NCBI GenBank assembly: GCA_948465965.1 | Contig: CAOJYR010000004.1 | Span: 2,734 to 66,733 of the forward strand | DNA from: an uncultured Mycoplasmatota bacterium | Lineage (GTDB): Bacteria > Bacillota_I > Bacilli_A > RF39 > UBA660 | DNA length: 64,000 nucleotides | Direction: 5' to 3' | Shown here: piece by piece, positions 7,081 through 48,353 of the stretch | Position numbering within the stretch: position 1 is the first letter of the stretch | How the letters are laid out: the number at the start of each line of letters is the position of its first letter | Program-made: the position numbers and the translations under genes | The notes under the pieces: generated by a model | Database searches by the model: none | What the model saw: the letters and a program-made list of their open reading frames with translations, nothing else | Told to the model about the DNA's origin: nothing

Positions 7081-7416
7081 ATGTATCAAAATAAGATAGC
7101 ACTTATGCCACAAGATATTTTGGAGAAAGATTTTAAGATTGATACAAGAGGATATCGTTTGAAAGAGGTAGATCAATTTCTAGATATTATTATTGGAGAT
7201 TATGAACAATTTTTGAATATTATTAATACTCTTGAGAAAGAAAAGGCTGATCTGCTTGGGGAGATTATGAATTTAAAGCAGGAGCTTAGGAATTCTAAAG
7301 TTAGTATGGAAGTTGCTAGAAATAGTAGTGAGATTCCAGAAGTTACTAATGTTGATATTTTAAGGCGTCTTTCGCAACTTGAAAAGATGGTATATGGAGT
7401 TAATAAGGACAATTAA
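7081..7416 (+). CDS. gpsB: Cell-cycle protein GpsB (DivIVA-domain)
   Basis: N-terminal DivIVA/GpsB motif DILEKDFKIDTRGYRLKEVDQFLD followed by a coiled coil. rnpB lies downstream, as in Bacillus. Confidence 0.85.
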   Translation: MYQNKIALMPQDILEKDFKIDTRGYRLKEVDQFLDIIIGDYEQFLNIINTLEKEKADLLGEIMNLKQELRNSKVSMEVARNSSEIPEVTNVDILRRLSQLEKMVYGVNKDN

Positions 7417-7765
7417 TATATAGACAAACGCTGGTGTTTTTAAGATGCTAGAGGAAAGTCCATGCTCGCACAGTCTGAGATGATTGTAGTGTTCGTGCCT
7501 AGGGAAAAAATAACCTAGGGTAGAGTAATCTAACGGCAGATGATAATCTAAGTCCATTGGATATGATTTAGTCTTGAAAAGTGCCGCAGTGACGATTTTT
7601 TTGGAAACAAGAAAGTGAAACGTGGTAAACCCCGCGAGCGAGAAACCCAAATTTGGTAGGGGAGTTCTAACGAAGGAAATGAATGGAGTTAGGAACCGGT
7701 TTTCGGTAGATAAATGTTTGTCGCCTAGTAATAGGAACAGAACATGGCTTATTTATATTTATTGT
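7409..7765 (+). ncRNA. rnpB: RNase P RNA (bacterial type B)
   Basis: Universal core strings GAGGAAAGTCCATGCTCGCAC (7451-), AGTGCCGCAGTGACG, GGTAAACCCCGCGAGCGAGAAACCCAAATTTGGTAGGGG and ACAGAACATGGCTTA. A putative P1 helix pairs 7409-7420 (acaattaatata) with 7754-7765 (tatatttattgt) with one mismatch. The exact ends are uncertain. Confidence 0.85.
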
Positions 7766-41210: not shown

Positions 41211-41296
41211 ATTATCACCTAATTCTATAATAGCATTAAATTCTTGATTTATGTATAAATTTAGTTAATTAGACATAAAAAATAGTGGAGGTAGAC

Positions 41297-42532
41297 ATGA
41301 AAAAGATATTTATATTTATTTTGCTGTTATTGACTGTTATTTTTCCATATGGAGTGTATGCAGTAGATAATACAAATAATAATGAAGGGTCTAATGTGAA
41401 TACAGAAGAGTCTAATACAAATGCTGAAGAATCTAATGAGGATGATAATACAGAACTTATTTCTAATGCTACTAGTGGGATATTGATTGAGGCTAATAGC
41501 GGAAAAATAATTTATGAAAAAGAGAAAGATAAACAAGTGCCTATTGCATCTATGACAAAAATGGTGGCACAAATTCTTATTTTGGAAAATATAGAAAAAG
41601 GAAATATAAAATGGGATGATGTAGTTACTGTTAGTAAGAATGCTGCAGAAATGGGTGGAAGTCAAATTTATATTAGTGAAGGAGAAAAAATTACAATAGA
41701 AGATTTAATGAAGGGAATCTCTATGGCAAGTGGTAATGATGCGACTGTTCAGATGGCTGAAGTTATTAGTGGAAGTGAAGCTAATTTTGTTAAATTGATG
41801 AATAAGAAAGTGAAGGAGTTAGGACTTAAAAATACTGTATTTAAAAATTGTACGGGTTTGGATGAAGATGGACATTTCTCTAGTGCATATGATATGGCAA
41901 TGATTGCTAGAGATTTGGTTGTTAATCACTCTGAAATATTGAGATTTTCATCTGTTTATGAGGATTATTTAAGAGAAGATACTGATAATAAATTTTGGCT
42001 TGTTAATACTAATAAGCTGGTTCGTTACTATGAGGGGGCAGATGGTTTAAAAACTGGTCATACTGATAATGCTAAATATTGTTTGGCCGCTACTGCAAAG
42101 AAAAATAATTTAAGACTTATTGGAATTGTTTTGGGTGAAGAAGTTAGTAAAGTTAGGAATAGTGAGACTATGGCTCTTTTGGATTATGGATTTAGTAATG
42201 TGAAGGTAAATACATTAAAGAAAAAGGGAACTGTTATTAAGCGTATACAATTAGATAAAGCTAGCGAAGATGTAGTTGATATTGTACTTGCAGATGATTT
42301 GGGAGTCGTGGAAGACAATGATACAAGTAAACATAAATACACTTATGATGTTAAAATTAAGGATATTAAACTCCCATTAAAAAATAATAGTGTAGTTGGT
42401 AAAATTATTGTAAAAGAAAATGGTAAAGAAGTGGGTAGTGGTAATTTAGTTGTTACTAAAGATATTGACAATATTGGCTATTTTGAGTTGTTGTTAAATG
42501 GATTAAAGAATATTATTAGTGGTAACTTATAA
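41297..42532 (+). CDS. Serine-type D-Ala-D-Ala carboxypeptidase (S11, DacA/DacF-like low-MW PBP)
   Basis: Signal peptide, active-site SMTK (IASMTKMV), SGN (ASGND), KTGHT and a C-terminal beta domain. Start set at ATG 41297 behind GGAGGT. Confidence 0.88.
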   Translation: MKKIFIFILLLLTVIFPYGVYAVDNTNNNEGSNVNTEESNTNAEESNEDDNTELISNATSGILIEANSGKIIYEKEKDKQVPIASMTKMVAQILILENIEKGNIKWDDVVTVSKNAAEMGGSQIYISEGEKITIEDLMKGISMASGNDATVQMAEVISGSEANFVKLMNKKVKELGLKNTVFKNCTGLDEDGHFSSAYDMAMIARDLVVNHSEILRFSSVYEDYLREDTDNKFWLVNTNKLVRYYEGADGLKTGHTDNAKYCLAATAKKNNLRLIGIVLGEEVSKVRNSETMALLDYGFSNVKVNTLKKKGTVIKRIQLDKASEDVVDIVLADDLGVVEDNDTSKHKYTYDVKIKDIKLPLKNNSVVGKIIVKENGKEVGSGNLVVTKDIDNIGYFELLLNGLKNIISGNL

Positions 42533-42632
42533 TTTATTTTCTATTTATTGAGGAAGAATTTTCTTCTTTTTTCTTTCTCTAATTATGTATTGGTGTTATA
42601 ATTTATTAGGAAAGAAATAAAGAGGTAGTTTT

Positions 42633-43559
42633 ATGTCTAAGAAAAGTAAAAAAAGAAATAATAAGAGCAATAAGAATAAGTCTAATGGTAGAATTAATTC
42701 TATTAATAAGGTATATAAAGATGAATTATCAGTAACAAAGCAACAGCAATTTGACTTTGATGATTTAGAATTAACTTCTACTTTAGATACTAGTTTTGTA
42801 GCTAAGAAAGGTACAAATAAGGTTACTGATGAAACAGTAGATAAGTTTAATTATTTAGAGGATATTATTGTAAGGCCTAGGAATAACCCTACTTTAATTT
42901 GTATACTAATTTTCATTATAATTTTGTTAGGTGGATTTTTAGGTTTTCATTTTTTAACGTTTAATCATAATAAAGTAAAGGTTGTTACTAAAGAAAAGGC
43001 TGTTAAGGTAGTTGATGATAATTACTTATTTTTAGGGGATTCTATTACTGATTATTATGATTTAGATAAATACTATAAAGATTTACCTGTTATAAATAGC
43101 GGTATTAGTGGTAATGCTACAGGTGATATATTAAATGATATGAATAATAGGGTTTATCAATATAATCCTTCTAAGGTGTTTTTATTGATTGGTACGAATG
43201 ATATACAAAGGGAAATAGATGATGAAAAAATTATTTCTAATATTGAGAAGATTATTGAAAATATAAAGGAAAATAGATCTTATGCAGAGATTTATTTAGA
43301 ATCTATTTATCCAGTAAATGAAGAAAAGTCTGGTGCTCAAATTAGGAAAAATTCTACTATAAAATCTATTAATAAAAAATTGAAGGAATATTGTAGAGAT
43401 AATGGTGTTATATATATAGATTTATTTTCAAAATTAATTGATTCTGACTCGGATGATGTAAAACTTAGTGAGATGTATTCTAAAGATGGGTTACATTTAA
43501 CTAGTGAAGGGTATAAGGTTGTTACTAAGGAAATAAAGAAGTATCTAAATGATAAATAA
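42633..43559 (+). CDS. Membrane-anchored SGNH/GDSL hydrolase
   Basis: Block I FLGDSITD, block III GTND, block V DGLHLT. Basic N-terminus plus one TM. Confidence 0.8.
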   Translation: MSKKSKKRNNKSNKNKSNGRINSINKVYKDELSVTKQQQFDFDDLELTSTLDTSFVAKKGTNKVTDETVDKFNYLEDIIVRPRNNPTLICILIFIIILLGGFLGFHFLTFNHNKVKVVTKEKAVKVVDDNYLFLGDSITDYYDLDKYYKDLPVINSGISGNATGDILNDMNNRVYQYNPSKVFLLIGTNDIQREIDDEKIISNIEKIIENIKENRSYAEIYLESIYPVNEEKSGAQIRKNSTIKSINKKLKEYCRDNGVIYIDLFSKLIDSDSDDVKLSEMYSKDGLHLTSEGYKVVTKEIKKYLNDK

Positions 43560-43620
43560 TGGTTATTTTCTAAAAGGTTCACACATATATATTTATCATA
43601 GAAAGGAATGAATAATATAT

Positions 43621-43881
43621 ATGGAAACACTTAAAGTAAGTAGTAAATCTAATCCAAATAGCGTAGCAGGAGCTTTAGCTAATGTATTCAGGGAAAAAGG
43701 AACTGTAGAAATTCAGGCTGTAGGGGCGGGTGCTTTAAATCAAGCGATTAAGGCAGTAGCAATAGCACGTGGTTTTGTTGCTCCAAGTGGTAAGAATTTA
43801 GTTTGTATTCCCGCATTTCAAGATATTGCGATAGATGGGGAAGAGCGAACTGCTATAAAATTAATTATAGAGGCTAAATAG
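43621..43881 (+). CDS. spoVS: Stage V sporulation protein S
   Basis: METLKVSSKSNPNSVAGALA...EIQAVGAGALNQAIKAVAIARGF is near-identical in pattern to SpoVS. Confidence 0.93.
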   Translation: METLKVSSKSNPNSVAGALANVFREKGTVEIQAVGAGALNQAIKAVAIARGFVAPSGKNLVCIPAFQDIAIDGEERTAIKLIIEAK

Positions 43882-43896
43882 GCCTCTTTTTCTTTT
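43869..43896 (+). terminator. Rho-independent terminator after spoVS
   Basis: agaggc-taaatag-gcctct hairpin overlapping the stop codon, followed by ttttctttt. Confidence 0.5.
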
Positions 43897-44008: not shown

Positions 44009-44037
44009 TTGACAGGTATTTATCAATATGCAATAAT
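44009..44037 (+). promoter_or_regulatory. Candidate sigma-A promoter of the SipW-type locus
   Basis: TTGACA (44009-44014), a 17-nt spacer ending in TGc (extended -10), then AATAAT (44032-44037). An AAAGGAGAG RBS follows. Confidence 0.45.
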
Positions 44038-44060
44038 TATACTAGAAAGGAGAGTAGTAA

Positions 44061-44555
44061 ATGAAAAATGGTAAGAATATTCTAATTGCTGGATTGTTAG
44101 TTGCAATTATGGTTATGTCAGTTGGTTATGCTGCTTTTGCAAGTCAACTAAATTTAAATGGAACAACTACAATTGATGGTGAGTGGGACGTAGAAATAAC
44201 AGCTATTAAGGCGTCTAATGTTACAGGTGATGCTGTGGCTGGTACACCTTCATATACAGCATCAACTGCTACATTTAATGCAACTTTGAAAAAACCAGGG
44301 GATGCAATTACTTATACAGTAACTGTTGAAAACAAAGGTAATATTGATGCTAAGTTAAATGACACAGTATTTACTGAGGGTGCAAATGGTTCTCCTGCTA
44401 TTGTTTATACACATACTGATCCAGCAGCAACTTTGGCAGCTGGCGATAGTACTACATTTACTGTAACTACTACTTATGATGCTAGTTATACAGAGACTCC
44501 AGCAATTACTACTAAAACAATTACTGGTTTAATCGAATACGTTCAAGCAGATTAG
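44061..44555 (+). CDS. Small secreted Thr-rich beta protein with SipW-cognate-like signal peptide; TasA/camelysin-superfamily-like
   Basis: MKNGK + hydrophobic helix ending VGYAAFASQ (compare the GT(F/Y)A(F/Y)F end of TasA-class signals). LKKPGDAITYTVTVENKGNIDAKL resembles the TasA NLKPGD....F.F.N.GS motif. Confidence 0.55.
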   Translation: MKNGKNILIAGLLVAIMVMSVGYAAFASQLNLNGTTTIDGEWDVEITAIKASNVTGDAVAGTPSYTASTATFNATLKKPGDAITYTVTVENKGNIDAKLNDTVFTEGANGSPAIVYTHTDPAATLAAGDSTTFTVTTTYDASYTETPAITTKTITGLIEYVQAD

Positions 44556-44651
44556 TAATAATCCGGTGAATTGAAATAATAGAGAAGTCTGGATGGTCTG
44601 ATGTTTTTTACTTCAGCTATGCTTCTCTTTTATTTGTGTATAGGAGAAAAC

Positions 44652-45188
44652 ATGAAAAGATTAACAAAGAGAAGAATAAGAAGAGTGATATCTAGGAATT
44701 TTATAATCATTTTTTTGTTAGTTTTGTTACCTGCTTTTCTTTTAATGGCTACAGGATATTCTCTTTTAAAATCGGAAGGAATTGTTGATGGTGAGACCAG
44801 TATAGTTGTCCCCGAACCACCAAAGGATAATATTGTTACTGATGGTGATGCTTCGATAGAACTAGGAGATTCTGAGACTGGTATAAGAGTTGTTAAGGTA
44901 TTAGAAGAAGAACATACATGGGGCGGAACTGCTAATGTATATAAATTAACACTTTATAATGATACTGATTCACCTATTACGTCCTTTAGAGGAATTATAA
45001 AGTATAAAAATGCTAATTTTTCTTATGGTTCATATATAACTAGTTTTGATGATGCGGCAGGGATTGCAAATGTTTATTGTGACTGGATGACAATTCCTGT
45101 TGGTGGATCTATAACTCTTGATTTTGTTATAATGACAACTCAGGATGGGTATTATCCGGACATAGTAATAGTAGGGGTGAATTCTTAA
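44652..45188 (+). CDS. Secreted or membrane-anchored beta-sandwich-like protein, same class of N-terminal signal
   Basis: MKRLTKRRIRR + helix ending LLMATGYSLLKSEG. The body shows a carbohydrate-binding-module-like pattern (HTWGGTANVYKLTLYNDTDSPITSFRG...DWMTIPVGGSITLDFVI). Start set at ATG 44652 behind AGGAGA. Confidence 0.5.
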   Translation: MKRLTKRRIRRVISRNFIIIFLLVLLPAFLLMATGYSLLKSEGIVDGETSIVVPEPPKDNIVTDGDASIELGDSETGIRVVKVLEEEHTWGGTANVYKLTLYNDTDSPITSFRGIIKYKNANFSYGSYITSFDDAAGIANVYCDWMTIPVGGSITLDFVIMTTQDGYYPDIVIVGVNS

Positions 45189-45196
45189 GAAGATGT

Positions 45197-46372
45197 GTGA
45201 TAAATATGAGATATGTTAAGAGAAAAGAGTTAATTTTAATTGTTACATTATTTTTATTGCTTCAGGTTATTTTGCAAATTTTTAATGTTAGGTTAGTGAC
45301 TCAGATTAATTCTGTGTTTTGGATTTTGATCATTTATTATTTATATAGAAATTCTAAAAATAATTATACAAGGTTATCTAGTAGATTTTACCTTGATAAA
45401 ATGGTTATCATTTCTATTTTATATATACTAATTTACTTTAATTTAGGATTTGTATTTGGATTTTCAAAGAGTCATTTTAGTCATACTTTTAGTGGCATTT
45501 TAAGTAACTTTTTTGAGATAATTATTCCAATAATAGGGATAGAATATTTTAGAAATATAGTTATTAATAAGAATAGGTCGAATAAGTTAATTATATGGTT
45601 AGTGACAATTATACTAATTCTTTTTGAAATTAAGTTTAATATGTTGTTATCTAATTTTGATAATAAAGAGCAATTTTTTAAATATATTTGTTCTATAATA
45701 TTTCCTTTGATAGCTAACTCAATTTTATATTCCTATTTAACTTTAAAGGGGCCTTGTATAATTGTTCTAGTATTTAGATTACTTGAGAGAGTATCTATAT
45801 TGTTATTGCCAATAGTTCCTAGTTTAGATTGGTTTATGACAGGGGCTCTGGGTATTATTACGCCAGTTTTGATATATTTATTAATTAAGTATAAATTATC
45901 GAAGCAGGAAGCATATTACAAGGGTAGAACTGGTAAAAAAGATTTTAACAAAGTAAGCTATGTGATTGCTATTACATTGAGTGTCTTTGTGGTTTCCTTT
46001 ATGTTAGGTTTGTTTAAGTATGAGCCTATTGCAATATTGTCTGATAGTATGGTTCCAACGTATAGTAGAGGTGATATTGTTGTATATGAAAAGCTTTCCA
46101 GTGAAGAGCTAAAAAATATTAGGGTGGGGGAAATAATTGTTTATAAGATAGGTAATCAAAATATTGCTCATCGCATTATAAATGTAGATAAGGGGCTAGG
46201 TTCTGTTTTTTATCAAACAATGGGCGATAACAATAATGATCCTGATTTGCGCAAAGTTACACCAGATCAGATTATGGGAGTCTATGTTTTTTCAATGCGA
46301 TATATTGGATTTCCTTCTGTTTGGTTAAATGACTATTTTAGTGAAGAAAAAGCTAAAGTTGAAACAAAATAG
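45197..46372 (+). CDS. Fusion protein: ~250-aa polytopic (about 8 TM) membrane domain + ER/archaeal-type (S26B, SipW-like) signal peptidase I domain
   Basis: C-terminal boxes ILSDSMVPTYSRGD (Ser box, 46040-46051), IAHRII (His box) and MGDNNNDPD (box E). The first ~250 aa are almost entirely hydrophobic helices. The start is GTG 45197 or ATG 45206. Confidence 0.8.
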   Translation: MINMRYVKRKELILIVTLFLLLQVILQIFNVRLVTQINSVFWILIIYYLYRNSKNNYTRLSSRFYLDKMVIISILYILIYFNLGFVFGFSKSHFSHTFSGILSNFFEIIIPIIGIEYFRNIVINKNRSNKLIIWLVTIILILFEIKFNMLLSNFDNKEQFFKYICSIIFPLIANSILYSYLTLKGPCIIVLVFRLLERVSILLLPIVPSLDWFMTGALGIITPVLIYLLIKYKLSKQEAYYKGRTGKKDFNKVSYVIAITLSVFVVSFMLGLFKYEPIAILSDSMVPTYSRGDIVVYEKLSSEELKNIRVGEIIVYKIGNQNIAHRIINVDKGLGSVFYQTMGDNNNDPDLRKVTPDQIMGVYVFSMRYIGFPSVWLNDYFSEEKAKVETK

Positions 46373-46383
46373 AGGTGTTTTTT

Positions 46384-47454
46384 ATGGATAAAAAGGGGAA
46401 TAGAAAAACAACTAAAAAATTTAGCACATTAAGATATGTATTTGTTTTTATTGCTATTATTATGATAGTTGTGGGTATAAAACTAATTTATTTAGGATTA
46501 GATACTAAGGATAGAAAAGATATTTATTATAGCTATGCCTCTAAGAGGAACACTGATTATCAAGTATATTTAAGAGATAATAGTTTTTATGATTCAACAA
46601 TAATGTCTGCTGGTAAACAGTACCCATCCATTCTTATTGATAAGTTTAATGTTAATTTTATATATAATTATAGGGGTAGTGAAAAGTCTGATATTAATTA
46701 TAGTTATAATGTTGTAGCAACATTGATTGGTGAATATAAAGATAGTAGTAACCAGGATGGTTTAGAAGTATGGAATAGAGAATTTGTACTAATAGATAAT
46801 AAATCATTTAGTAAAAAAAATTCCTCTACATTTTCTATTGTTCAGAACTTTGATTTGAATTATCAAGCTTATAATAATTTAGTTTCTTCATATAGAAAGA
46901 GTTATGATTTGAATATAGATGCCTATTTAAAAGTAGTTATGACTATAAATTATAAGATTGATTTGTATAATGGATTAAATAAGGATGTTCGTAATGTTGA
47001 ATATATAGAGATTGATATTCCCCTAAATAATACGGTATCTAAAGTTATTGATAATTATGAACCTAGTGTTTCGAAGAATTTAGCTAATGTTCAAAAAGCG
47101 GGTGTTAAGTTTAATTATTTAATTGTAGGTATAGTACTAATTTTAATATCAGTAGTTATAATAGTTAGTAATCGAAGTACTGAGAAAGAAACAAAAGAAA
47201 CGTTGTATAAGAAAAACATTAATAAGATATTAAAAGAATATGGTGATTTAATTGTTACTGTAACTAATAAACCAGACATTAATAATTTGAAAAAAATGAA
47301 TCTTGCTATTCTCGATGATTTGATAGATGTAGCAGAACAAAATAGATGTAATATTATTCATTATGTATCATCTGCTAATAAACAGAGTATATTAATGGTT
47401 ATATCAGATCGTTATGTATATATTTATAAGGTTACTTCTGATGAGGTAAAATAA
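46384..47454 (+). CDS. Two-TM membrane protein: TM, ~220-aa extracytoplasmic domain, TM, ~95-aa cytoplasmic tail (possibly DUF5305-like)
   Basis: Topology read from the translation (helices FVFIAIIMIVVGIKLIYLGL and LIVGIVLILISVVIIV). GAGGTG RBS. 11 nt downstream of the peptidase gene. Confidence 0.5.
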   Translation: MDKKGNRKTTKKFSTLRYVFVFIAIIMIVVGIKLIYLGLDTKDRKDIYYSYASKRNTDYQVYLRDNSFYDSTIMSAGKQYPSILIDKFNVNFIYNYRGSEKSDINYSYNVVATLIGEYKDSSNQDGLEVWNREFVLIDNKSFSKKNSSTFSIVQNFDLNYQAYNNLVSSYRKSYDLNIDAYLKVVMTINYKIDLYNGLNKDVRNVEYIEIDIPLNNTVSKVIDNYEPSVSKNLANVQKAGVKFNYLIVGIVLILISVVIIVSNRSTEKETKETLYKKNINKILKEYGDLIVTVTNKPDINNLKKMNLAILDDLIDVAEQNRCNIIHYVSSANKQSILMVISDRYVYIYKVTSDEVK

Positions 47455-47567: not shown

Positions 47568-48353
47568 ATGAATGATGAGATAATCTATTGTCCTAGGTGC
47601 GGAGCTAGTATGAAAAATAGTTCTAGATATTGTATGAAGTGTGGAGCTCTTAACTTTGATCATCCTGATAATCAATCTATGAAGCAATATATTAGTGAAA
47701 AAGAAATAAACAAAAGTAATATTGGGTATGCAGATAGTAATAATAATATAGAAAATAAAGTTTTTGTTGGTGGTAAAGAGTTAAAAGAAGTATCTATTGC
47801 CTCTTCACCACAGGTTGAGTCAAAGAATTATAAAGCAGAGATTCTATATATTTTGTTAATATCACTTCTTGCTTTTGGAGCTGTTGCGTTTTTTCTAGAT
47901 CAATCTTTTATGGTGGGAATTTATAGTTTTTTAATTGTTTTTTTCTCATTACTTTCTGTTTTAGCAACTTCTAATATTTATAGGAAGGCAGGGTATTCTG
48001 GATTTACTGTGTTTATTCCATTTTATAACATGTATATTTTATGTGAAATGTTATTTGGCAAAGGGATTTTATTTTTACTTGGATTTGTTCCTATAGTTAA
48101 TATATTTTTTTCGTTTGTACTTCTTTATAAGTTAGGAGAAAAATATGGTATTAATGGTATTTTATCGATTTTATTTGCACCTATTGTGTTACTGGTTATA
48201 GCTTTTAGTGATAGGGTTGTATTTTTAGGTGCTCCTAATCCAAATACAAAAGCTGTAATAACTATTATTGGCCTTTGTTTTATGATTATTTATATTATTT
48301 TGATAGGAATAGCAATGGATAATTTTCTTCATATGGTGAGTTTCTTGAATTAA
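47568..48353 (+). CDS. Zinc-ribbon + DUF5684-like membrane protein
   Basis: N-terminal CPRCG...CMKCG zinc ribbon. The membrane part contains YRKAGYSGFTVFIPFYNMYILCEMLFGKG, resembling the KAG.PGW..(I/L)IP.YN...L motif of DUF5684 proteins. Confidence 0.6.
   Translation: MNDEIIYCPRCGASMKNSSRYCMKCGALNFDHPDNQSMKQYISEKEINKSNIGYADSNNNIENKVFVGGKELKEVSIASSPQVESKNYKAEILYILLISLLAFGAVAFFLDQSFMVGIYSFLIVFFSLLSVLATSNIYRKAGYSGFTVFIPFYNMYILCEMLFGKGILFLLGFVPIVNIFFSFVLLYKLGEKYGINGILSILFAPIVLLVIAFSDRVVFLGAPNPNTKAVITIIGLCFMIIYIILIGIAMDNFLHMVSFLN

Follow-up and report, generated by a model that had tools for sequence, protein, structure and literature searches.

In an uncultured gut Bacillota bacterium, four co-directional open reading frames are packed into a compact operon, and the question that they raise is what two small proteins with related N-termini, a signal peptidase, and a two-helix membrane protein would be making together. 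A preliminary description of the window (the whole 64,000-nucleotide stretch of DNA analysed) had proposed a dedicated processing and assembly module for a TasA-like subunit. We favor, with a probability of roughly 0.7, the reading that the locus is a minimal bacterial module of the abpX type, which would use a TasA-superfamily subunit to build a fibre or matrix outside the cell.

Gene order and transcription signals

The four genes lie on the forward strand (ORFs 44061-47454) behind a near-consensus promoter, both where they had originally been placed. Gene 1 occupies 44061-44555 (164 aa), gene 2 44652-45188 (178 aa), gene 3 45197-46372 (391 aa from a GTG), and gene 4 46375-47454. On sequence grounds, the most likely start of gene 3 is ATG 45206, which gives 388 aa, because its homologues begin MRY.K and because the copy in the database has this same length. 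The gap between genes 2 and 3 is consequently 17 nt and not the 8 nt first given, while the 96 nt between genes 1 and 2 hold. The sigma-70-type promoter (44009..44037, + strand) consists of TTGACA, a 17-nt spacer, and an extended -10 element, TGcAATAAT; defined by its consensus match only, it scores 11/12 consensus positions, with a TG preceding the -10 hexamer. It lies 24 nt upstream of the start of gene 1 and downstream of the terminator (43869-43887) of spoVS. Promoter-like sites across the region show no excess (33 found, 37 expected from shuffles), and the case for a promoter at 44009-44037 is the quality and position of that single site only. A strong ribosome-binding site for gene 1, GAAAGGAGAG, can be read off the sequence at 44045..44054 (+). 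The 96-nt spacer between genes 1 and 2 contains a hairpin with a U-rich 3' side (44574..44635, +) whose folding energy of -24.6 kcal/mol is not significant (z = -1.4) and which was not called in the terminator scan; one might speculate that it acts as a leaky terminator setting the ratio of major to minor subunit.

Since spoVS is the gene directly upstream, the product could be a spore-associated or envelope-layer component rather than a biofilm fibre, with its expression tied to sporulation, and the PDB entry of TasA is still named "Spore coat-associated protein N". However, spoVS is followed by a terminator of its own, and the promoter of the locus resembles sigma-A sites. In addition, the flanking genes are different at every related locus, and proximity to spoVS is thus not a conserved feature. 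We consider this explanation, which concerns location more than mechanism, highly improbable.

Gene 1 and the archaeal matrix protein AbpX

Gene 1 (44061..44555, +) encodes a 164-aa protein that we annotate as the putative precursor of an AbpX-like (TasA-superfamily) major subunit, and 70 homologues of it were found. Its signal peptide (aa 1-24; 44061..44132, +) has a basic N-terminus, a hydrophobic helix, and a conserved V-G-Y-A, in which Y23 is invariant and G22 and A24 are kept in 41/43 and 39/43 homologues, respectively. An N-terminal extension (aa 25-43; 44133..44189, +) with the putative donor strand AFASQLNLNGTTTIDGEW follows, and then a beta-sandwich body (aa 44-164; 44190..44552, +) with a PGD..Y.V.V.N.G..DA motif and a C-terminal Y-x-Q. 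In the AF2 model of the monomer (pLDDT 92), the signal forms a helix at residues 4-24, the extension is coil, and the body is made up of six long strands with pLDDT 96-98. The residues invariant in the family are Y23, N91, G93, A97, and Q162. The motifs VGYAAFASQ and LKKPGDAITYTVTVENKGNIDAKL, to which attention had been drawn earlier, are present, and the mature protein is acidic, with a pI of 4.16.

AbpX of Pyrodictium abyssi was described in a January 2026 preprint, with homologues in archaea, Bacillota, and Chloroflexota (bioRxiv 10.64898/2026.01.04.697558). When its precursor is aligned with the gene 1 family using hhalign, 139 columns spanning the signal, cleavage site, donor strand, and body are matched at 95.8 % and E 8e-9. 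Side by side, the cleavage site and strand read …GYA|AFASQLNLNGTTTI in gene 1 and …TYA|QWSETLSLSATI in AbpX. In a search of PDB sequences with the gene 1 family profile, AbpX is the top match at E 1.3e-3, so that the resemblance is at the profile level only, and TasA entries are also among the best matches, although not significantly (E 0.62-0.81). These alignments show, at the level of sequence, that gene 1 is homologous to AbpX, an archaeal matrix protein of the TasA superfamily. In a Foldseek comparison, the best match to gene 1 is the TasA fibre 8aur_A (E 5.7e-3, TM 0.40), as the proposal of a TasA-like subunit would lead one to expect; the others include the Sulfolobus thread, CfaB donor-strand pilins, and the CLIPPER crystal structure 9ifr, and all of these structural matches are weak, with E above 1e-3 and TM of 0.3-0.4.

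Cleavage is predicted to occur at GYA|AF, in a segment that aligns with the AbpX site TYA|QW. The extension that would be freed is among the best conserved parts of gene 1, as seen for L30 (42/43), I/V/L32 (42/43), A36 (39/43), I/V38 (41/43), and W42 (42/43), and its hydrophobic residues alternate in an i, i+2 pattern like W2-I12 of AbpX. In an AF3 prediction of the AbpX monomer, the N-terminal extension is likewise unstructured. The similarity does not extend to every feature of AbpX, and two missing features count against the favored reading. Strand position 4, the acidic donor-strand residue, is acidic in only 1/43 gene 1 family members, and the D46/D48/E52 calcium loop, treated as a hallmark of AbpX (bioRxiv 10.64898/2026.01.04.697558), is absent from the family in the hhalign alignment. 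As the gene 1 clade is without the calcium ligands of AbpX, its assembly is probably not triggered by calcium in the AbpX manner.

The profile matches of gene 1 allow for a different view, in which gene 1 encodes an Ig-like protein of the CLIPPER_2/CARDB/DUF11 type that stays monomeric, whether kept at the surface by an uncleaved N-terminal anchor or secreted and released, with the peptidase serving as a specialised secretion enzyme that has no role in polymerisation. Indeed, Pfam DUF7507/CLIPPER_2, a domain known from non-polymerising adhesin stalks, matches gene 1 at 2.2e-7, above the Pfam threshold; there are further matches to CARDB and to TIGR01451, a model of DUF11 repeats, 9ifr is in the Foldseek list, and the polymer is something that we infer. 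However, the CLIPPER_2 match covers profile positions 11-78 only, essentially the PGD..Y.V.V.N.G..A motif that AbpX also has, and CLIPPER domains are arranged in tandem within long adhesins instead of standing alone as 140-aa proteins. Nor does a monomeric protein explain the obligatory link to a dedicated peptidase, or why a disordered N-terminal extension that aligns with the AbpX donor strand is so highly conserved. We regard a monomeric product as unlikely, and consider that the TasA-superfamily subunit encoded by gene 1 probably polymerises by donor-strand complementation.

Strand exchange could also be followed by a covalent step. In BsaA of C. perfringens, a sipW-linked member of the TasA family, E56 catalyses an isopeptide bond between N35 and K74, and an "exchange-and-lock" polymer of this type would join the strand Asn of one gene 1 subunit to an acceptor Lys of another. 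The strand Asn N33 is present in 35/43 family members, and an isopeptide-domain family is matched by gene 1. Against this, there is no conserved Lys column in the family, the best being K92 at 27/43, the Pfam match leaves out the Lys and Asn positions of the CLIPPER_2 triad, and the triad is present in only some of the relatives of BsaA. A locked polymer therefore seems very unlikely to us.

The signal peptidase and its DUF5305 neighbour

The N-terminal part of gene 3 (aa 1-247; 45197..45937, +) is a membrane domain of eight transmembrane helices, which the AF2 model (pLDDT 85) places at residues 10-29, 31-53, 63-87, 98-125, 130-152, 157-184, 188-203, and 212-242. Invariant residues in this domain are N104, P111, E116, R119, F161, R194, P205, and W212. 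It belongs to no Pfam family, and Foldseek gives a weak likeness to Rce1 (4cad_C, E 0.42). At E<=1e-3, the domain is found in 1288 representative proteins; among the matches listed, nearly all are ~385 aa long and have the same peptidase fusion.

A ninth transmembrane helix and an extracytoplasmic SEC11/SipW-type (S26B) signal-peptidase domain make up the remainder (45938..46372, +). TIGR02228 matches gene 3 with 81.7 bits (cut-off 51.85), the family profile finds SEC11C in the PDB at 5.9e-16, and the closest structure in Foldseek is 7p2q_A at 2.5e-5. The boxes SDSMVPT, IAHRI, and GDNNNDPD are all present, and S284, H325, D344, and D350 are invariant among 56 homologues. These data show gene 3 to be a SEC11/SipW-type Ser-His signal peptidase whose catalytic set is intact and which is fused to an eight-helix membrane domain on its N-terminal side, in agreement with the proposal of a dedicated S26B-type enzyme beside a small TasA-superfamily subunit. 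The term "SipW-centred" does not apply in the strict sense, as gene 3 reaches 58.5 bits with the SipW equivalog model, whose cut-off is 190.

Gene 4 (46384..47454, +) starts at ATG 46384, preceded by AGGTG, and encodes a 356-aa DUF5305 protein, a putative signal-peptidase accessory subunit (Pfam DUF5305, 5e-15, 56 bits, cut-off 29). The expected two-helix topology is found, with transmembrane segments at 22-40 and 246-264, an outside domain of ~205 aa, and a 95-aa cytoplasmic tail that is conserved in an alignment of eight orthologues. Of the family assignments anticipated for the locus, DUF5305 was thus borne out, while gene 1 matched neither Pfam Peptidase_M73 nor TIGR04088.

A variable, putative second substrate, the conserved core, and related systems

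Gene 2 (44652..45188, +; 178 aa) is a second putative peptidase substrate and a candidate tip or cap subunit. It has a very basic N-terminus, a transmembrane helix, a T-G-Y-S|L-L motif, a strand-like segment, and one CBM2-like beta-sandwich, and it contains the motif LLMATGYSLLKSEG reported earlier. With the gene 1 family it has only the signal/cleavage/strand region in common (hhalign, E 7.5e-5). A word-indexed search returned its identical copy (P0191) as the sole match. Positional counterparts of 294-311 aa are found at loci L004, L006, and L011, that of L004 being related to gene 2 by BLASTP at E 5e-6. Pfam matches no family to gene 2 itself; the counterparts match Pfam CBM_2 (4e-9 to 7e-9) and the PDB CBM2 entry 3ndy (1.3e-9), and the CBM2 label of gene 2 is transitive only, through them.

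Genes 1, 3, and 4 have many homologues with 40-66 % identity and in the same order, and their hosts, uncultured Clostridia or Bacilli of the gut, are known only as MAGs. The peptidase gene is preceded by a gene 1 homologue at 10/10 loci and followed immediately downstream by a DUF5305 gene at 9/10. Gene 2 has a counterpart at 4/10 loci and, being absent from 6/10, cannot be essential. Over the ten loci, genes 1 and 3 are always kept and gene 4 usually is, with gene 2 variable, so the unit is one of three conserved genes and not the four initially supposed.

In the mechanism that we propose, the gene 1 product would be exported by Sec, with its signal helix retained in the membrane, and the dedicated peptidase together with the DUF5305 protein would cut it after G-Y-A. 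The freed amphipathic strand AFASQLNLNGTTTI could then enter the open groove of a neighbouring gene 1 subunit and complete its beta-sandwich, and repeated donor-strand complementation would give an acidic fibre (pI about 4.2), with calcium triggering of the AbpX kind probably playing no part. Gene 2, which shares its signal, cleavage motif, and strand with gene 1, may be the minor subunit and cap the fibre at its groove end, its CBM2-like body probably forming a carbohydrate-binding tip.

A parts list of this kind has been outlined for abpX loci of archaea and Bacillota, which comprise an AbpX-like subunit, minor or tip subunits, a multi-transmembrane SPase I, and a DUF5305 "SPase accessory" (bioRxiv 10.64898/2026.01.04.697558), and the pairing of peptidase and DUF5305 is known from Tafi loci (PMC11821415, PMC12337348). 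With modules of this kind already in the literature of 2025-26, the locus is not a new system. The preliminary description is therefore partly supported: its functional inference stands, and its claim of an undescribed system falls. With the abpX loci the present locus has in common a subunit consisting of signal, Y-A cleavage site, amphipathic strand (aromatic at mature position 2), and beta-sandwich, the low pI of the mature subunit, an adjacent TIGR02228-type multi-helix peptidase, the DUF5305 accessory, and a minor or tip protein that varies. It differs in that gene 3 has nine predicted transmembrane helices and not the ten reported, and in that the putative second substrate resembles CBM2 rather than AbpX. 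In addition, published bacterial abpX loci contain anchor (LPXTG or SLH) and regulator genes (bioRxiv 10.64898/2026.01.04.697558), whereas no LPXTG or SLH anchor protein, sortase, histidine kinase, or c-di-GMP gene was found within this locus, and the clade of gene 1 is likewise without those anchor and regulator genes, a difference that counts against the abpX reading.

In the tapA-sipW-tasA operon of Bacillus subtilis, a donor-strand matrix subunit likewise has a dedicated S26B Ser-His signal peptidase as its neighbour, and the cleavage context is aromatic-Ala|Ala-Phe in both, GYA|AFAS in gene 1 and TWA|AFND in TasA. Here, however, TapA is absent, the peptidase has eight extra helices, and there is a DUF5305 gene, which to our knowledge the tapA operon does not have. 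Haloarchaeal Tat-fimbriae (TafA/TafE, TafD peptidase, TafG DUF5305) also have a dedicated peptidase-DUF5305 pair beside donor-strand pilins, although their subunits carry Tat signals and belong to another clade of the superfamily, and TafD spans the membrane with four helices and possesses a second outside domain. The TafD-dependent processing of TafA has been established experimentally by deletion and complementation (PMC11821415, PMC12337348). In Clostridium perfringens, the sipW-bsaA-bsaB-bsaC matrix operon of the TasA family also has a SipW dedicated to it, and it includes a second paralogue that does not polymerise. There, in contrast, subunits are locked by the BsaA N-E-K isopeptide triad, which is not conserved in gene 1, and BsaC is a von Willebrand A-domain protein whose secretion needs the type IV pilin PilA3; we take this operon to be without a DUF5305 gene because the term is absent from the bsa paper. 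Finally, the SPase I catalytic subunit and its membrane accessory proteins have been likened to the eukaryotic signal peptidase complex (bioRxiv 10.64898/2026.01.04.697558). SEC11C (7p2q_A) is the best match to the gene 3 catalytic domain in both structure and sequence, and compared with that complex (SEC11A/C plus accessory subunits), gene 3 has extra helices fused to the catalytic subunit and a DUF5305 protein as its partner.

The putative subunit gene and its relation to AbpX

The preliminary description had placed four co-directional ORFs behind a promoter, and all four are present there, as are all the motifs it quoted. Gene 1 (44061-44555), gene 2 (44652-45188), gene 3 (45197-46372) and gene 4 (46375-47454), all on the + strand, lie downstream of a sigma-70-type promoter with an extended -10 element (44009-37, +), which agrees with the consensus at 11 of 12 positions and is followed by a strong RBS. 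The terminator of the upstream spoVS gene is found at 43869-87. While these ORFs stand, the start codons first assigned to genes 3 and 4 do not. The homologues of gene 3 begin with MRY.K and the database copy has 388 aa, so the ATG at 45206 is most likely the start, and the gap between genes 2 and 3 is therefore 17 nt; gene 4 begins at the ATG at 46384, with AGGTG directly 5' of it. No regulatory RNA was found near the locus with Rfam. The 96-nt spacer between genes 1 and 2 contains a hairpin whose 3' side is rich in U (44574-44635); this hairpin, which might reduce read-through into the gene for the minor subunit, is not statistically supported (z = -1.4).

Sequence comparison demonstrates that gene 1 encodes a homologue of AbpX. 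When a profile of the 43-sequence gene 1 family is run against the PDB sequences with hmmsearch, AbpX is the top match (9sj2, E 1.3e-3; 9rhp, 0.025), and the TasA entries 8aur and 5of1 trail at E 0.6-0.8. Alignment of the family with the P. abyssi AbpX precursor by hhalign (95.8 %, E 8e-9, 139 columns) extends from the signal helix through to the end of the sandwich; the precursor query was taken from the preprint supplement, with two obvious OCR slips corrected by the PDB alignment. The cleavage regions are aligned as well, with …GLTYA/QWSETLSLSATISTGSLDVDIK in AbpX opposite …SVGYA/AFASQLNLNGTTTIDGEWDVEIT in gene 1. The mature gene 1 protein has a pI of 4.16 and an Asp+Glu content of 11.4 %, and the AbpX clade features a pI of about 4 and about 15 % Asp/Glu. 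In Pfam, gene 1 matches DUF7507 (= CLIPPER_2, 2.2e-7), CARDB and DUF11. The HMM check with Peptidase_M73 (the TasA family) and TIGR04088, proposed in the preliminary description, gave no match to gene 1 or gene 2 at E<=0.1. At the C-terminal end of the protein, a Y-x-Q motif (window 44538-44546) is near-invariant in the gene 1 family (Y160 in 41/43, Q162 in 43/43), and the corresponding end of AbpX differs.

The AF2 model of gene 1 (pLDDT 92) consists of a signal helix (4-24), a coil (25-43) and a six-strand sandwich (44-162). A fold comparison with TasA had also been proposed; the TasA fibre 8aur_A is indeed the first Foldseek match, but the match is weak (E 5.7e-3, TM 0.40). The 0406 thread of Sulfolobus (7pnb_A) is twelfth with a TM of 0.40, and CfaB is also among the matches. 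All of these matches are weak, with none at E<=1e-3 and TM values of 0.3-0.4, and generic Ig-like sandwiches score alike.

The coil at 25-43 is among the best-conserved parts of the gene 1 family. Tyr23 is invariant, and near-complete conservation is seen for Leu30 (42/43), Ile/Val/Leu32 (42/43), Ala36 (39/43), Ile/Val38 (41/43) and Trp42 (42/43). Assuming a cut after G-Y-A, mature position 2 is Phe in 31 of the 43 sequences and Leu in the other 12. The aromatic position 2 and the amphipathic N-terminal strand of the AbpX clade are thus present in gene 1, where L30, I32, A36 and I38 alternate. In the model, a conserved coil of this kind fits a strand that would become ordered only inside a neighboring subunit. 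For the AbpX monomer, AF3 likewise predicts an unstructured N-terminal extension, and the solved P. abyssi AbpX fibrils are held by donor-strand complementation with calcium sites (10.64898/2026.01.04.697558).

The calcium ligands of AbpX are largely missing from the gene 1 family. The position equivalent to the donor-strand ligand E4, position 28, is Gln, Thr, Ser or Ala and is acidic in only one of 43 sequences. From the acidic cluster D18, D46, D48, E52 and E142, an equivalent was found for D18 alone (D43, 23/43); in the alignment the AbpX loop TSTDSDQGNEQ lies opposite AGTPSYTAST, such that the loop carrying D46, D48 and E52 is absent. Calcium sites are predicted "frequently, although not universally" across the AbpX clade (10.64898/2026.01.04.697558).

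Two covalent locks were considered for the gene 1 family, and both are rejected. Gene 1 residues 72-141 match CLIPPER_2 (PF24346) with 31.3 bits (cut-off 27), which would suggest an intramolecular Lys-Asp-Asn isopeptide. In the published example this triad occupies about domain positions 8, 48 and 88; the match spans profile positions 11-78 of 105 and misses the Lys and Asn positions, and the family has no conserved Lys column. The intermolecular N-E-K isopeptide that locks C. perfringens BsaA requires a triad that is not conserved in the gene 1 family, as N33 is present in 35/43 and no Lys or Glu column exceeds 27/43.

The fused signal peptidase and the DUF5305 protein

The C-terminal third of gene 3 is an archaeal/ER-type signal peptidase, scoring 81.7 bits with TIGR02228 (cut-off 51.85). 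The best PDB match of the gene 3 family profile is SEC11C (5.9e-16), and Foldseek returns 7p2q_A at 2.5e-5. In all 56 gene 3 sequences S284, H325, D344 and D350 are invariant, which bears out the S26B Ser/His signal peptidase read initially from the sequence and, at that level, demonstrates the catalytic integrity of the domain. The description of the locus as SipW-centered does not hold, as the score with the SipW equivalog NF046067, 58.5 bits, stays below its cut-off of 190.

The AF2 model of gene 3 (pLDDT 85) contains eight helices within residues 10-242, a ninth anchor helix (248-269) and a catalytic domain outside the membrane, a topology that is consistent with positive-inside loops. No Pfam family matched the eight-helix domain in any of the 56 members, and the family has no PDB sequence match outside the peptidase domain. 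A profile of the eight-helix domain nonetheless finds 1288 representative proteins at E<=1e-3 and 824 at E<=1e-10. Nearly all of the 150 matches listed are about 385 aa long, with the eight-helix domain at the N-terminus, and nine of ten distant members tested have an S26 domain behind it, with a dockerin in the tenth. Proteins with this fusion therefore make up a large, stable family. In the protein with the dockerin, P0332 (474 aa), this domain is of type I and located at the end, and no S26 domain is recognizable; this dockerin, along with the CBM2-like second substrates described below, suggests a link to plant-fiber-degrading Clostridia.

The residues invariant in the eight-helix domain (N104, P111, E116, R119, F161, R194, P205 and W212) point to a conserved intramembrane function. 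CPBP/Rce1 proteases share an eight-helix fold and carry EExxxR, FxxxH and HxxxN motifs. A weak Foldseek match to Rce1 (4cad_C; E 0.42, TM 0.49 normalized to target length, 255 columns) might indicate membership in this group, an identity that we reject since none of the 56 members has a Pfam match, no His is conserved and sequence support is lacking. No CPBP-like ORF was found in the window or the related loci for comparison. The resemblance of the predicted structure to Rce1 is a weak, fold-level lead, and is not established.

Gene 4 matches Pfam DUF5305 at 5e-15 (56 bits, cut-off 29). Its predicted topology comprises two transmembrane helices around an outside domain of about 205 aa, followed by a 95-aa cytoplasmic tail. 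Across eight orthologues this tail (window 47142-47454) is the best-conserved part of the protein, above the outside domain, with the consensus …YGDLIVTVTNKPN..NLK.M…LDDLIDVAEQN..NIIHYE…YVYIY, which hints at a conserved cytoplasmic partner. In the Tafi system of haloarchaea, the dedicated peptidase TafD was demonstrated by deletion and complementation to process the subunit TafA, and is paired with a DUF5305 protein, TafG (PMC11821415, PMC12337348). Gene 4 is a putative TafG-like SPase accessory protein, and in nine of ten loci the DUF5305 gene adjoins the peptidase gene.

The conserved unit and the second candidate substrate

The comparison covered ten independent loci, namely the window, L001, L002, L004/5, L006, L007/8, L009, L010, L011 and L012, the L numbers denoting related loci from other contigs. 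In all ten, the peptidase gene is preceded by a gene 1 homologue, and in nine it is followed immediately by the DUF5305 gene; four of the loci have a gene resembling gene 2 between the gene 1 homologue and the peptidase gene. The flanking genes are different at every locus. Conservation as a unit extends to genes 1, 3 and 4, which narrows the four-gene unit initially proposed to three.

The surroundings of individual loci vary. The lineage represented by L007 and L008 is the sole one lacking DUF5305 beside the peptidase (407 aa there), with a 205-aa single-transmembrane protein encoded on the opposite strand instead; DUF5305 may be dispensable in this lineage or encoded elsewhere. In L009 (7034-9170) the neighbors of the module are resolvase, recombinase and Mob genes, an arrangement suggestive of a mobile element. 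A sortase gene is located two genes downstream of the module in L010 (7745-8653), and in L011 (6319-9164) the module is directly upstream of a protein of >2900 aa.

For gene 2, a word-indexed search returned an identical copy (P0191) alone, and no family model matched, including CBM_2, which gave no match at E<=1. Resemblance to the gene 1 family is seen within the first 50 residues, where hhalign (E 7.5e-5) aligns just the signal and cleavage region. Relatives were found by synteny: L004, L006 and L011 encode proteins of 294-311 aa at the corresponding place. These counterparts share with gene 2 a very basic N-terminus, a T(G/A)Y(S/A)L motif and a strand-like segment. The L004 protein aligns with gene 2 through its second, C-terminal domain (E 5e-6), and the L004 and L011 proteins align with each other at E 2e-18 and match Pfam CBM_2 above threshold (4e-9 to 7e-9). 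A profile of the four sequences matches the solved CBM2 domain 3ndy_E at 1.3e-9, solely through the domain that is absent from gene 2. Gene 2 is thus a shortened second candidate substrate with a probably CBM2-like body, an assignment that is transitive. A six-frame motif scan of the window, with a motif too strict to recover gene 1 itself, yielded no third substrate; it returned gene 2 and one unrelated match without an upstream hydrophobic stretch.

Comparison with abpX loci and a proposed route to assembly

The preliminary description had viewed the locus as an undescribed system. This is no longer true, as a preprint of January 2026 reports a matching part list for the abpX loci of archaea, Bacillota and Chloroflexota, which encode a structurally distinct SPase I, spanning the membrane with ten helices, and a DUF5305 "SPase accessory", as well as AbpX-like minor subunits and tip proteins of variable fold (10.64898/2026.01.04.697558). 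The window locus fits this list as a minimal example. It differs in that the AbpX calcium ligands are missing, that gene 3 has 8+1 predicted transmembrane helices rather than the ten published (compared by description), that anchor, sortase and regulator genes are absent, and that the second candidate substrate is probably CBM2-like. The functional reading proposed at the outset, a module for the processing and assembly of a fiber subunit, is largely right. Homology, catalytic integrity and linkage are demonstrated.

On this basis, a route to assembly may be outlined. The precursors of genes 1 and 2 would be exported by Sec, and the peptidase, with DUF5305, would cut after G-Y-A in gene 1 and G-Y-S in gene 2. 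The freed N-terminal strand would then enter the groove of the next subunit. Because the strand is present and the body is different, a gene 2-type subunit would be confined to the groove end, where it would serve as cap or tip.

A bolder reading, which we consider unlikely, is that the fused peptidase is itself the fiber polymerase. Cleavage and strand hand-over would be coupled on a platform formed by the eight-helix domain and DUF5305, which would hold the membrane-anchored precursor while the new strand is passed straight to the groove of the next precursor. The fiber would grow from its base, and a CBM2-like adhesin at the tip would attach these gut Clostridia to glycans of plants or of the host. 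The features cited for the polymerase are the invariant E116, R119 and R194 of the eight-helix domain, its faint Rce1-like fold and its conservation, ahead of the SEC11-like domain, across at least 824 sequence clusters.

The locus opens no new category, and is of a known, recently described kind. TasA-superfamily fibers are emerging as a matrix scaffold common to bacteria and archaea, and descriptions of abpX-type loci in bacteria have so far come from bioinformatics alone. The version seen here, common among the uncultured low-GC Bacillota of the gut, is stripped down to one major subunit, a peptidase with nine helices, DUF5305 and, optionally, a second substrate that is probably CBM2-like. 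Its compactness makes it handy for asking whether the peptidase and DUF5305 are needed, what role the eight-helix domain has, and whether assembly can do without calcium.

The host is a member of the Bacillota with a GC content of about 28 %, and the nearest relatives of the locus genes come from MAGs of uncultured Clostridia or Bacilli, partly from rabbit gut. A class B bacterial RNase P RNA in the window (7415-7756, +; 281 bits) also puts the host in the Bacillota. Upstream of the locus, 41285-43881 encodes a D-alanyl-D-alanine carboxypeptidase-like protein, a membrane-anchored SGNH/GDSL hydrolase and SpoVS; these envelope and sporulation genes are not kept beside the module in other loci. 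Finally, a zinc-ribbon membrane protein (Zn_Ribbon_1 and DUF5684; 47568-48353, +) is encoded 113 nt past gene 4, and no terminator was called in this gap. Genes for zinc-ribbon proteins border the module in two further loci, downstream in L006 (8319-9224) and upstream in L004 (4060-4443), which may reflect a loose association or coincidence.
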